Part shown: piece after piece, positions 45,115 through 48,037 of the stretch | Layout of the letters: each line of letters opens with the position of its first letter | Position numbering within the stretch: the stretch's first letter is position 1 | Source: Gemmatimonadota bacterium | GTDB lineage: Bacteria; Gemmatimonadota; Gemmatimonadetes; Longimicrobiales; RSA9 | DNA length: 48,037 nt | NCBI GenBank assembly: GCA_040905425.1 | Contig: JBBDRO010000100.1 | Location: 184,402 to 232,438, forward strand | Direction: 5' to 3' | Program-made: the position numbers and the translations under genes | The notes under the pieces: generated by a model | What the model was told of the DNA's origin: nothing | Database searches by the model: none | What the model saw: the letters and a program-made list of their open reading frames with translations, nothing else

Positions 45115-46248
45115 CTACCCGCCCGACCCCGGCACGCGCACCGTGAACTTCTGCACCCGGCGACCCGTGGATGCCTCCCCCACATACAGGTTGCCGTCGG
45201 CGTCGATGCCCATGCCGTGCGGGCGCAGGAACTGGCCCACCTGGCGGCCGCCCCGGCCGAAAGCGCCCACGATCTCCAGGCTGGCCCGCTCGAGGATCCA
45301 CACCTTGTGGTTGGTACCGTCGGCCAGGTAGAGCCAGCGCTGCTCGGCATCGGGCGAGAGCGCGATGACGAAGGCCGAACCCGACGCGCGCGTTTCGGGC
45401 GCCACCAGCCGCTCGGCCACGAAAGCGCCGTCCTGGCGGAAGACCTGGATGCGGTTGCCACGGCGGTCCGCCACGTAGATGAGCCCGTCCGTGGAGCCCA
45501 CCAACCCGTGCACGGTGGAGAACTGGGACGGCGGCGCGTCCGGCGCGGCGCGGGCCACGCGCGCGTCGTCGTCGGGCGGGCGTCCGTAGGCGCCCCAGTG
45601 GCGCAGGTACGCGCCTGTGGCGCCATCGAAGACCACCACGCGGCGGTTGCGGTAGCCATCGGACACGAAGACCTCGTTGGTGGCGGCATCCACCCAGATG
45701 CCCGACGGGCCGCCCAGCAGGACGGTGTCGGCGCTGCCGCCGGTCTCGTCGTAGCGGCCGAGGGTCAGCAGGTGCTCGCCCGCGCGGGTGAACTTCATGA
45801 CCCGGTGGTGCTGATAGCTGCCCACCCAGACGTTGTCCTCGTGATCCACGAAGATGCCGTGCGGATTGCGTGGGTAGGCGGCCACGTCGTCGTCCGGCCA
45901 GCCCCAGCCCCCCACCACCCGGCCGTCCGGGTCGAATTCCACCACCACGGGGGCGGGGCGGCAGCAGGACGCGATGGGCGGGTCCTGCACCGCCCCGAGT
46001 TCCTCGGGCGTCAACGTCTCCGCCAGGTGCGTGACCCAGACGTGCTGGCGCGCGTCCACGAAGACGCCGGTCACCGAACCCATCACCCAGAGGTCGGGCA
46101 GCTCCTGCGGCCAGGAGGGGTCGACCTGGAAGCTGGGAACGGCGCTGCTCTGTGTGGCCTGGGTGGCGTGGACCGGGTCCGTACCCCCGATAGCCGCTCC
46201 CAGCGCGGCCGCCACAGCTGCCAGCGGTAATGATCGGCGATTTCGCAT
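45115..46248 (-). CDS. Exported NHL-repeat beta-propeller protein (PAL-like)
   Basis: Signal-like N-terminus, VDPSWP, and repeated PHGIFVD / SDGY.N.RV / ADR.N.RIQ NHL motifs. Confidence 0.85.
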   Translation of the reverse strand: MRNRRSLPLAAVAAALGAAIGGTDPVHATQATQSSAVPSFQVDPSWPQELPDLWVMGSVTGVFVDARQHVWVTHLAETLTPEELGAVQDPPIASCCRPAPVVVEFDPDGRVVGGWGWPDDDVAAYPRNPHGIFVDHEDNVWVGSYQHHRVMKFTRAGEHLLTLGRYDETGGSADTVLLGGPSGIWVDAATNEVFVSDGYRNRRVVVFDGATGAYLRHWGAYGRPPDDDARVARAAPDAPPSQFSTVHGLVGSTDGLIYVADRRGNRIQVFRQDGAFVAERLVAPETRASGSAFVIALSPDAEQRWLYLADGTNHKVWILERASLEIVGAFGRGGRQVGQFLRPHGMGIDADGNLYVGEASTGRRVQKFTVRVPGSGG

Positions 46249-46415
46249 GCGCCGCTCCCGTGTTGCGAAAGTGGGGACCCCGCGACCGATGCGCTGATCT
46301 CCACATCGTGGATCGTGGAATCGACAGGAACCTCATGATGAACCCGAGACGGTCCCGCTGGCAACGAGGCCGCGCCTGTCCCCCGAAAATCGACGAGAAC
46401 CCCTGTCCCACCCTC

Positions 46416-46587
46416 ACCGGCCGCTGGCCGACCCGTCGATGCTCGCACCCGTGATAATTCGTACCCGGTGACGGCCGTGTGAGCGGCCTGCCCGGTACCC
46501 GGTGCCCCGTGCCCGGTGATGGGTGGTCGAGGCCCCTTTCCTTTCGTCGTGCGACACATCGAGTCGGATCCAGACAGCGTGACCGGC
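46416..46587 (-). ncRNA. Putative structured RNA: long bulged stem enclosing a 7-nt repeat array, directly 3' of the DIP1984-family gene
   Basis: Nested pairings found by eye on the minus strand: GCCGGUC-GCUG/CAGCGGCCGGU, CCGAC/GUCGG and UCGAUGU-UCGCAC/GUGCGA-GCAUCGA. The ~100-nt loop holds phased heptamers. Confidence 0.6.
46484..46525 (-). repeat. Phased heptamer array
   Basis: CACCCAT CACCGGG CACGGGG CACCGGG TACCGGG CAGGCCG, with a further CACCGGG at 46470-46464. Confidence 0.85.
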
Positions 46588-46597
46588 TACCTCTCGT

Positions 46598-47068
46598 CTA
46601 TTCGGCCAGCTCCGTTGCCCAGTTGAGCTGCTGCAACCGGACGTCCAGCTCGCGGTAACGGACGGCCCACGCATCGGCTTCACCCTGCAGCGCGGGCACG
46701 TCCACGGCCGCAGCGGTGGGGCTCTCCCCCGTGCGGCCGAGCCAGCCCCTGCCCGCCCGCGTGCCCGCCTTCGCGGCGCCTCGGTAGAGTTGCGTCATCC
46801 GCTGCGCATGGTCGCGGCGGGCGATCAGATCGCTGATCGTGGCCGTCGTGTCCGGCTTCGCCACGGTGGCGGCGTTCGTGCGATTGATGCGCTCCACCAG
46901 GACGGCCAGCTCCCCGGCCACCGCCGCGGCCGTTTTGAGCAGCTCCACCGGATCCTCGTCCGCTCGCTGTCCTTCCGGCACGCGCGCATTGTCCTCGATC
47001 CGGGCGTCCAGTGCCTTCAGCTTCTTCTGCTGGTCCGCGCGCAGCGCCAGCGCCTCCGCGAGCAGCAT
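46598..47068 (-). CDS. DIP1984-family coiled-coil protein
   Basis: MLLAEAL..RAD, NARV.EG...EDP, RINRTN, ARRD and LQQLNWATEL are the family hallmarks as I recall them. Strong AGAGGAGG SD. Confidence 0.85.
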   Translation of the reverse strand: MLLAEALALRADQQKKLKALDARIEDNARVPEGQRADEDPVELLKTAAAVAGELAVLVERINRTNAATVAKPDTTATISDLIARRDHAQRMTQLYRGAAKAGTRAGRGWLGRTGESPTAAAVDVPALQGEADAWAVRYRELDVRLQQLNWATELAE

Positions 47069-47095
47069 GATGTGCCTCCTCTCTTACCTTGGTGC

Positions 47096-47422
47096 TCACC
47101 AGTCGTCGTCCTCCCAGGGACGACGGTCCGCCTTTTCCTCCAGCCGCCGCGCGCGCCGGAACTCCCGTTCGGCGGCCCGGTGACCGGTCGTGCACTCCGT
47201 GACCCGATTCACATCCGCCGAGCGGACCCGGACGTCAGCCCCGAACAGGTCCTGGAAGCGGAGCCAGCGCGGCGGCCGGAGCCGCTGCAGCTGATGGGCG
47301 ACGTCGAGTGCGGTTTCACGCGTCACGTAGAACCAGCCGCCGTCGCCTGCAATCTCCCAGAAATCCTCCTCGGGCCTCTCCTCCTCGGACTCTCCGAAGT
47401 ACTCCTTCAGCCTGTTGATCAT
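47096..47422 (-). CDS. Hypothetical protein (108 aa)
   Basis: MINRLKEYF...RRPWEDDDW with protein-like composition. Its stop lies 27 bp before the DIP1984-family start, suggesting an operon. Confidence 0.7.
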   Translation of the reverse strand: MINRLKEYFGESEEERPEEDFWEIAGDGGWFYVTRETALDVAHQLQRLRPPRWLRFQDLFGADVRVRSADVNRVTECTTGHRAAEREFRRARRLEEKADRRPWEDDDW

Positions 47423-47516
47423 GACTCCACGCTGGCTCGTTTCGACCGTTCTCGTGCCGGGCGGATGCACTCCGCGGTGACCCGCTGACGGCGCGGACGG
47501 CGTGCTGCATCGAGGG

Positions 47517-47929
47517 AGGGAGTCGCGTTGTCGCCTGCACCTCTCCGCATGGCGCCGCCGGCCGCCAGGGGCCCCGCTCAGGGCATACAAAACGCCCCAC
47601 CCGGGCACGCGGCACAGGTGGGGCGCGGTCATTTCGCCCCGGGATCGGAGGGTGCGCGCCTCAGCGCATCACGCCTCCCATCGGTCCTGCGCCACATTTT
47701 CGCCTGCGCCGTGAGCACTGCCACGACGCGCACGGCTGCAAGCGGGTGCCGTCGGCGCTCGGCCGGGGCTCCGCTCGTCCGTGCTTGCTGAATCGATGCT
47801 GCGTCATGGCTCCAGTCTGGTCGTGGGCCGAAAATGAAAAACGCGCCGCCGATGGCCATCCGCCGAACCTTCGGCGAGCCGCCCACGCCACGAACGGCGA
47901 GGGGGTTGGACATCGGGACGCGACTCCCT
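47517..47929 (-). ncRNA. Putative ~410-nt structured leader / regulatory RNA
   Basis: Perfect 12-bp terminal complementarity (47918-47929 with 47517-47528) and many internal hairpins. Begins just after a predicted promoter. Confidence 0.5.
47587..47625 (-). terminator. Intrinsic terminator-like hairpin inside the leader
   Basis: CGCCCCACCU/GGGUGGGGCG 10-bp stem followed by UUUUGU. Confidence 0.5.
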
Positions 47930-47936
47930 GAGGCTG

Positions 47937-47967
47937 ACTAGATAAAAGCGCGCGGCCGGGTTGTCAA
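47937..47967 (-). promoter_or_regulatory. Putative sigma70 promoter for the DIP1984 module
   Basis: Perfect TTGACA (47967-47962), 17-bp spacer, imperfect -10 TATCTA(GT). Confidence 0.5.
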
Positions 47968-47984
47968 GGGAGACGTGCCGGACG

Positions 47985-48037
47985 TGTCAAGTACGGATAG
48001 AAATGTCCCCTACCTTCGGCGGATAGAAATGTCCCCT
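47985..48037. mobile_element. Probable IS terminus (ISNCY/IS1202-like or IS21-like), truncated at window edge
   Basis: Begins TGTCAAG, then two identical 18-bp repeats CGGATAGAAATGTCCCCT (47994-48011 and 48020-48037). This TGT-plus-iterated-site layout is typical of such IS ends. No transposase is visible. Confidence 0.65.

Follow-up and report, generated by a model that had tools for sequence, protein, structure and literature searches.

TRAP on the trp leader and HutP on the hut leader are oligomeric proteins, each of which recognises short motifs set at a fixed distance from one another; these RNAs are leaders of the operons under regulation, and the proteins are beta-rich rings. In type III toxin-antitoxin systems (ToxIN, CptIN, TenpIN), tandem RNA repeats of ~34-45 nucleotides (nt) precede the toxin gene, from which a terminator separates them, and the toxins belong to endoribonuclease families such as ToxN/AbiQ. 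Here, we analysed a 48,037-nt stretch of DNA from a Gemmatimonadota bacterium (contig JBBDRO010000100.1; the whole stretch is called the window in the following), in which the gene of a DIP1984 (DUF6847) protein is followed by a structured RNA with a 7-nt-periodic array. Like the RNAs of TRAP and HutP, it carries short conserved motifs, here YAC, regularly spaced on a strand without Watson-Crick covariation; unlike them, the array is locked in a large folded RNA past the protein's own gene, its period is 7 and the protein is helical. The layout in which a protein and its own structured non-coding RNA are encoded side by side is shared with Ro60 (Rsr) and Y RNA/YrlA, as far as excerpts of PMC4201824 and PMC7790460 describe them.

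On balance, we consider it probable that the window holds a structured non-coding RNA of ~205 nt which is co-transcribed with the DIP1984 gene and is a reduced member of a family co-inherited with that gene, with a ribonucleoprotein as our working model. The gene and the parts of the RNA are listed below; P0, P1, P2 and P4 are helices, and R1 is the covariance model of the RNA family.

46598..47068, minus strand: DIP1984/DUF6847 protein gene, 156 amino acids (aa), including the TAG stop codon; PF20935 and NF038048 profile matches.
46392..46598, minus strand: whole structured RNA, ~205-207 nt; conserved in the related loci L011, L013 and L014, matched by R1 at E 1e-5, with stem covariation in this clade.
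46592..46598, minus strand: P0 5' strand, GACGAGA; complementary to 46398-46392, its first base being the last base of the stop codon.
46392..46398, minus strand: P0 3' strand, UCUCGUC, immediately 3' of the G-rich tail.
46587..46591, minus strand: GGUAG motif at the P0/P1 junction; GGUA[AG] opens 61 of 70 family members, and GGUA is invariant in alignment A7.
46563..46586, minus strand: P1 5' strands, CCGG (46586-46583), CGCUG (46579-46575) and CCGAC (46567-46563).
46417..46432, minus strand: P1 3' strands, GUCGG (46432-46428), CAGCG (46426-46422) and CCGG (46420-46417).
46549..46562, minus strand: P2 5' strand, UCGAUG, then UCGCAC; counterpart of the family's GCGAGCAC.
46436..46448, minus strand: P2 3' strand, GUGCGA, then CAUCGA.
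46533..46548, minus strand: purine-rich stretch GACGAAAGGAAAGGGG, at the site taken elsewhere by an H-type pseudoknot, P4 and a T-arm-like hairpin.
46451..46532, minus strand: heptad array of ~9 units NNNN-YAC with a small hairpin inside; the units in order are CCUCGAC, CACCCAUCAC, CGGGCAC, GGGGCAC, CGGGUAC, CGGGCAG, GUCAC, CGGGUAC and GAAUUAUCAC.
46473..46488, minus strand: small hairpin GGCCG-CUCACA-CGGCC within the heptad array.
46400..46416, minus strand: G-rich tail UGAGGGUGGGACAGGGG, between P1 and P0.

A long bulged helix made of P0, P1 and P2 joins both ends of the element and encloses the heptad array, and GGUAG and the G-rich tail stand opposite each other at the P0/P1 junction. An earlier note on this DNA had proposed three stem segments (46586-46575 with 46417-46426, 46567-46563 with 46428-46432 and 46562-46549 with 46436-46448), which indeed pair exactly, and its purine stretch, heptamers and GGCCG/CGGCC hairpin can be seen in the sequence as well. 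Its placing of the two ends of the element has to be corrected, since P0 begins in the stop codon and runs to 46392; besides P0, the note overlooked GGUAG, the G-rich tail (sequence GAGGGUGGGACAGGGG, part of the element beyond the coordinates first reported) and an upstream gene of 109 aa. At the P0 site, locus L013 has GGAGGCGAG versus CUCGGCCUCC, and the family members L094 and L067 carry unrelated but complementary flanks. The P2 core of the window reads GUCGCAC versus GUGCGA, compared with GCGAGCAC / GUGCU in the family. The GGG of the purine stretch is complementary to a CCC at ~46521-46519 and is kept in 4/4 clade members without covariation, and the array hairpin is kept in L011, L013 and L014 with differing loops and no double changes.

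Could such an element have arisen by chance as a hairpin in GC-rich DNA, or be a repeat, for instance a repetitive extragenic palindrome (REP), a miniature inverted-repeat transposable element (MITE) or a remnant of clustered regularly interspaced short palindromic repeats (CRISPR)? The genome (4.1 Mb) has ~70% GC, so that long stems arise readily, and the folding energy is unremarkable because of this composition: the minimum free energy is -83.8 kcal/mol versus -80.9 +/- 4.3 kcal/mol for shuffled sequences, a z of -0.67, with 49 of 200 shuffles equal to it. The period-7 power of A/C versus G/U amounts to 2.0 versus 0.23 in the 44 nt 5' of the hairpin and to 2.22 versus 0.24 over the whole 215 nt, values that none of 2000 shuffles reaches in either case, and Tandem Repeats Finder detects 4.3 copies of a 7-nt unit at 46489-46518. 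The element is present once in its own genome, its sole match below E 0.1 being itself, which rules out a REP- or MITE-like repeat.

Conservation among relatives decides the matter. In three metagenome loci whose DIP1984 proteins are 90, 67 and 63% identical to that of the window (L011, L013 and L014, respectively), the element is kept over its whole length, beginning at the stop codon and ending in GAGGGUGGGAC..GGG, which all of them share. Their insertions and deletions relative to the window measure 7, 4 and 5 nt; these are not multiples of 3, so the element is non-coding and a small open reading frame (ORF) within it is excluded. Across the four sequences, 87.2% of the stem cells are paired versus 79.4% after shuffling, 7 pairs show double changes versus 3.4 (reached by 0/500 shuffles), and the stem score is 0.236 versus 0.008-0.114 for slid partners. 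The three P1 helices have 100%, 94% and 67% of their cells paired, with double changes in every helix, and P2 has 93.8% with 3 pairs showing double changes. In a variant strain (run X2), the 207-nt RNA differs at 11 positions versus 12 in the 92-nt spacer behind it, and the exchange of C to U at 46563 (minus strand) yields a U-G pair, so that pairing is kept. The single genomic copy, the conservation with compensatory changes among relatives and the match to a covariance model made from other phyla refute the chance-hairpin or repeat explanation, to which we assign practically no probability. That this is a structured RNA and neither a terminator nor a CRISPR array, as the earlier note had it, stands.

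Is the RNA a common companion of DIP1984 genes? A scan for such genes with one genome per species gave 80 loci with the broad alignment A4 and none with the narrow alignment A1, spread over Acidobacteriota, Chloroflexota, Bacillota, Actinomycetota, Campylobacter, Cyanobacteria, Planctomycetota, Moraxellaceae and two methanogenic archaea. The loci include Brevibacillus fortis (L081), Paenibacillus nicotianae (L056) and Methanocella (L042), and Deinococcus radiodurans, a control genome, has the gene too. Within the 300 nt past the stop codons, one architecture of ~200 nt recurs. We built the model R1 (199 positions, 33 pairs) from 29 canonical copies and searched it over the window and 86 loci (327 kb). 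On the gene's strand and downstream of DIP1984 it matches 74 of the 80 genome loci at E <= 2.2e-12, 45 of them outside the model-building set, and the metagenome locus L015 at the same level. The six exceptions are L035, which has no DNA past the gene, L076 with an E of 1.4e-4, and two pairs of loci to which we return below (L017 and L031; L018 and L020).

Covariation was computed on the 70 best R1 matches in an alignment that is fitted to the model and hence favours it: 91.5% of the cells pair versus 60.9% in shuffled alignments, and the score is 0.695 versus 0.205 for shuffles (0/500) and 0.05-0.10 for slid partners, where the relatedness of the family sequences makes the shuffle statistics overstate the significance. 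Double changes occur in 32 of the 33 pairs, and all 5 pairs of P2 covary. A model-free mutual-information scan returned the model's pairs as its top 28, and the G-U pairs fit the gene's strand. The closing stem, which the earlier note expected to covary downstream of many DIP1984 homologues, does so in these 70 matches.

From 5' to 3', a typical member consists of P0, GGUAG, P1 with a non-Watson-Crick interior, P2 with its GCGAGCAC / GUGCU core, an H-type pseudoknot, an optional hairpin, the P4 hairpin, a T-arm-like hairpin, a heptad stretch of ~62 nt, ACC, the return strands and the G-rich tail. The first stem of the H-type pseudoknot (ACCC-stem-GGGU-AA-stem) covaries (CCC/GGG, UCUC/GAGA, ACCG/CGGU, GCUCC/GGAGC), and several of the 70 members lack the pseudoknot or do not show it clearly. 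The GGGGC loop of P4 pairs with a distal GCCCAG, with the variants GGGAC/GUCCC and GAGC/GCUC. The tail reads GAGGG-N-GGG-N3-GGGG; GGG-N1-2-GGG-N2-5-GGG closes 67 of the 70 members, and GAGGG.GGG and GGGG are invariant in A7. A pseudoknot between GGUAG and CUACC was considered and rejected: GGU/ACC is invariant, the partner of the invariant A is U, C, G or A without compensation, and nothing past the 3 invariant pairs supports it. Beside P2, columns 27 and 346 of alignment A9 form a covarying non-Watson-Crick G-A/A-G pair with 4% standard pairs, which would behave as a sheared pair or a kink-like motif.

A cmscan of window positions 45800-48037 with Rfam 15 gave three matches at E <= 10, none within the element, as the earlier note's suggestion of novelty implied, and in the same search of 20 loci nothing in the element reached a gathering score; the sub-threshold matches overlapping it lie in L081 (2033-2085, minus strand, E 0.056) and L021 (2184-2268, E 0.054). 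On our reading, the window RNA is a member of a widespread RNA family absent from Rfam 15, and neither among catalogued RNAs nor among RNA-protein modules is there anything like this system.

Within this family the window copy stands apart. Its R1 match of 20.9 bits (E 1e-5) is split into 46399-46500 and 46532-46592, and L011 is matched from end to end with 20.3 bits (E 1.6e-5), compared with 40-184 bits for typical members. The window clade shares P0, GGUAG, P1, P2, the GGGG...CCCA contact, the heptads and the G-tail with the family. In the window, L011, L013 and L014 there is no H-type pseudoknot, the purine-rich stretch being in its place, and neither the P4 hairpin nor the T-arm-like hairpin is found in the clade. 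Compared with typical members, the window heptads are GC-rich (NGGG-YAC) and contain an inserted hairpin, and the operon opens with the 109-aa gene. We read the window copy as a reduced, divergent and GC-rich family member. Other reduced forms exist. L010, the nearest species genome, whose DIP1984 protein is 38% identical, and the Acinetobacter copies keep P1, P2, GCCCAG/GCUCAG and the heptads. R1 gave no match at E <= 0.01 in the Acinetobacter loci L097 and L099, where the tail-less variant was recognised by eye. As far as these sequences tell, the heptads and the closing helix are the parts that are never lost.

These variants bear on the idea that the RNA is self-sufficient, a ligand-binding or catalytic RNA built on the GGUAG/G-rich junction, perhaps a G-quadruplex, with DIP1984 as helper or client. 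The invariant G tracts persist without a C-rich partner even in AT-rich hosts (L089, 34% GC), the tail 9-mer occurs in excerpts of papers on G-quadruplexes, and the covarying G-A/A-G pair beside P2 would suit an RNA of this kind. Moreover, GGUAG and the G-tail are lost jointly in L010, L097 and L099, which suggests that the two motifs work as one unit. However, the tail provides three G tracts only, and the variants that lack GGUAG and tail retain the heptads and the gene, so that the conserved core is not to be sought in the junction. Being strictly linked to a single protein family is typical of a partner rather than a free-standing riboswitch, and the downstream genes vary in identity and strand. 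We therefore see only a slim chance for an autonomous RNA. For the window, a leader or riboswitch of the downstream NHL-repeat gene was also considered and dismissed, as an NHL gene follows in L011 only and downstream genes vary elsewhere.

The linkage of gene and RNA is strict. In whole genomes, 5/5 contain one strong R1 match each, located at the DIP1984 locus. Among 101 genomes of one family, PF20935 is found in 11 (one of which, G459, is flagged unpublished), and in 11/11 the RNA follows 19-51 nt downstream on the same strand; the RNA itself is present in 12 of the 101. Both viral contigs that were examined have it beside the gene (2/2), and an Enterococcus plasmid copy carries it as well (R1 E 3e-13). 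The neighbouring genes differ from locus to locus, which leaves gene plus RNA as the conserved unit, and clustering of the neighbouring ORFs yielded no family common across lineages except RtcB.

Three contexts recur, namely RtcB, transfer RNA (tRNA) arrays and large phages. RtcB adjoins the module in L032/L038/L073, L087 and L099. In L099:1-3450, from a record of Acinetobacter phage MD-2021a, rtcB, a 166-aa gene, DIP1984, a 260-nt gap and rtcA follow one another on one strand, and the gap holds the tail-less RNA variant. In three Pyrinomonadaceae, tRNA genes lie directly upstream on the same strand (L026:31-1359 with 11, L021:89-265 with 2 and L094:67-143 with 1). In the window's own genome, RtcB is encoded on a separate contig.

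The gene is patchy and accessory, being present in 1 of 401 genomes of a sample of the window's phylum, in 2 of 61 relatives and in 11 of the 101 genomes above. A protein search placed it on 371 plasmids, 342 of them from Acinetobacter, and it occurs in phage contigs; a megablast of the L088 module against plasmids gave no match. In the window, the apparent end of a multicopy mobile element lies ~570 nt away. A protein gene that adjoins a repeat-bearing RNA gene, as a mobile pair, recalls type III toxin-antitoxin or abortive-infection modules in which the RNA would neutralise a toxic DIP1984, and the earlier note had drawn this comparison. The defining features fail: the repeats measure 7 nt rather than ~34-45 nt, the RNA follows the gene instead of preceding it with a terminator between, and the protein is a four-helix bundle that matches DUF6847 alone in Pfam and no nuclease. 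PADLOC gave no model below E 0.026 for the window proteins, LmuB being the best, and at some loci the pair is part of an rtcB/rtcA RNA-repair operon or follows a tRNA array. A toxin-antitoxin module is thus very unlikely.

Another explanation concerns the position of the RNA with respect to its gene. The element starts in or just past the stop codon, with a median of 10 nt from stop codon to GGUAG and 50 of 75 loci within 16 nt, no separate promoter was found for the RNA, and no intrinsic terminator lies between gene and RNA. From this spacing and the missing terminator we infer co-transcription. The same facts would suit a cis-acting structure in the 3' untranslated region of the DIP1984 mRNA, i.e. 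a stabiliser, a processing signal or an autoregulatory operator that forms no stable particle. Against it, the RNA lies ~150-700 nt from the gene in L101, L100 and L069 (~700 nt downstream in L069), occurs twice in L052, is found upstream of the gene as partial matches in L017 and L031, and is present in one genome without the gene. The RNA is also far more complex than known stabilisers of untranslated regions, for it combines two pseudoknots with invariant single-stranded motifs, and 44 of 70 members have a T-loop-like hairpin in addition. We hold a purely cis-acting role to be quite unlikely. The L052 locus, from an Isosphaeraceae metagenome-assembled genome (MAG), has its two RNA copies in tandem after one DIP1984 gene, at 2009-2199 and 2283-2489.

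If gene and RNA form a ribonucleoprotein, where would the protein bind? Throughout the family, the heptad stretch comprises 8-9 heptads of the form NNNN-[G/U/C][U/C/A][A/C] and keeps a constant length of ~62 nt. In the 70 members the period-7 power of A is 0.52 versus 0.21 there (z 11.4), and the signal is absent from the 5' domain (z 1.1) and from the 3' strands (z 0.4). The 7-nt periodicity noticed at first in the window is hence family-wide and confined to one single-stranded region. The mutual-information scan found no Watson-Crick covariation inside the heptad stretch, and pairing of this kind within it was discarded as a model. GC-rich hosts (L037, L078, L015 and the window) retain YAC, although their spacers have shifted towards GC. 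Confined periodicity, constant length and lack of Watson-Crick covariation are what one expects of a bound single strand, and the periodic non-pairing strand is our best candidate for the protein's platform.

The putative partner is well defined as a protein. The DIP1984 ORF matches PF20935 with 123.3 bits (cut-off 27, E 9.4e-36, residues 10-154) and NF038048 with 129.8 bits (cut-off 70, E 9e-38, residues 3-154); PHROGs returned nothing usable for it. An entry of the PDB, 3kdq, is a sequence match at E 4e-17. The AlphaFold2 (AF2) model of the window protein shows four helices (pLDDT 91.6) and superimposes on 3kdq_A in Foldseek with a TM-score of 0.90 and a root-mean-square deviation of 1.9 over 155 columns; the same search of the PDB gave no fold match besides 3kdq. 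A GGAGG is located 7 nt ahead of the ATG. Some database records on Acinetobacter plasmids label DIP1984 'septicolysin'. In the part of PMC10889530 that we saw, the gene is merely named, on an Acinetobacter plasmid, and the literature on DIP1984/DUF6847/PF20935 offered no link to RNA, with papers on 'septicolysin' judged by title.

In our working model, the RNA would be transcribed together with the DIP1984 gene and P0 would protect its ends. The four-helix protein would bind the RNA encoded next to its gene, with the periodic single strand as the probable site, and one subunit per heptamer, as proposed in the earlier note, is a guess. The folded domains and the G-rich junction may stabilise the particle or recruit other factors. 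With regard to the cellular role, hints at RNA repair, tRNA biology or conflict with phages come from the T-arm mimic, from the loci near rtc or tRNA genes and from the copies in phages. This is also where the likeness to Ro60 and Y RNA, as given in the excerpts cited above, goes beyond gene order: the tRNA T-arm look-alike GGUUCGAnUCC is a hairpin in 44 of the 70 DIP1984-RNA members, and the DIP1984 loci L099, L032, L038, L073 and L087 go with rtcB/rtcA operons. In contrast, DIP1984 is a four-helix protein of ~150 aa and Ro60 a TROVE ring, the RNA architectures differ, and no Rfam model matches, Y RNA included. The window RNA has no TROVE protein beside it, since its neighbours are DIP1984 and the 109-aa protein, a result that covers this neighbourhood and not the whole genome. 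The comparison points towards a functional parallel rather than a relative.

We speculate further, along a line that is unlikely to hold in full, that the module could be an unrecognised ribonucleoprotein spread horizontally among bacteria, archaea, plasmids and large phages. Its helical protein would polymerise on the 7-nt strand, and the T-arm mimic and the quadruplex-like junction would engage enzymes of tRNA processing or RNA repair, as an analogue of Ro60-Y RNA in RNA damage or phage-host conflict. The window would then present a minimal version, with closing helix, heptads and junction, to which a beta-barrel protein is added as a third part.

Besides the unremarkable folding energy and the relatedness of the family sequences given above, several observations weigh against the favoured reading of a co-inherited RNA and a ribonucleoprotein. 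The window scores weakly with R1, L014 reaches E 0.007, and neither L013 nor L010 is matched at E <= 1. L010, L097 and L099 lack both GGUAG and the G-tail. In L018 and L020 the gene is present but R1 finds no match, and the GC-rich loci L017 (1291-1478) and L031 (1307-1477) show partial R1 matches only, upstream of DIP1984, where the gene order may be reversed. Conversely, a genome without PF20935 has an R1 match of 125 nt and 48.5 bits (G514:C1:4049264-4049388), which may be a remnant or a free-standing copy. On the protein side, DIP1984 is mildly acidic (isoelectric point 5.95), and with a fold that matches 3kdq alone nothing marks it as RNA-binding. The stretch was found in 9 sequencing runs of DNA metagenomes, with no RNA run among them.

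DIP1984/DUF6847 has a solved structure and unknown function, occurs in many phyla and is carried by hundreds of Acinetobacter plasmids. A dedicated RNA partner of ~200 nt, in which two pseudoknots and a tRNA-like hairpin are combined with an invariant G-rich junction and a strand of 7-nt period, would be the first concrete handle on its role. It would add a new class of large structured RNAs of bacteria and archaea, and perhaps a novel way for proteins to recognise RNA periodically. As a marker of the minimal conserved core, made up of the closing helix, the heptads and the junction, the window's reduced variant would be useful.

The coding neighbour that the earlier note passed over lies on the same strand as DIP1984 and the RNA:

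47096..47425, minus strand: 109-aa gene without a family, from the ORF list; 27 nt upstream of the DIP1984 gene, in one operon with it; a clade-specific partner.

Pfam, NCBIfam, PADLOC and PHROGs all failed to match its product. We found 51 homologues, none with a family name; the named ones come from Gemmatimonad MAGs. By tblastn, homologues adjoin DIP1984 in L010-L014, and the gene accompanies DIP1984 in this clade only. The AF2 model (pLDDT 78.6) is a small beta-barrel with a C-terminal helix; Foldseek gave no match for it at E <= 0.001, and the best VIA-align Z was 4.7, to small beta-barrels, with Hfq/Lsm chains at Z ~3. An Sm-like assignment was rejected as these Z values are too weak. 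A predicted complex of the 109-aa protein with DIP1984 scored 0.00, which is evidence neither way. In L010, a HEPN-domain gene lies just downstream of the module of DIP1984, RNA variant and 109-aa homologue (L010:2959-3372).

The next gene past the RNA element encodes the NHL-repeat protein and starts at 46248. The 109-aa gene is preceded at 47592-47608 (minus strand) by a hairpin that resembles a terminator and has a run of U. It probably ends the transcription unit before this gene, and the same hairpin (47580-47639, minus strand) gave rise to a spurious sub-threshold microRNA match in Rfam. At the extreme end of the contig, the 17-mer GGATAGAAATGTCCCCT occurs twice, at 47995-48011 and 48021-48037, 26 nt apart. 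The window's genome holds 13 copies of it (<=2 mismatches), several of them paired likewise and at contig ends, so that the pair looks like the terminal repeats of the multicopy mobile element mentioned above, ~570 nt from the module.

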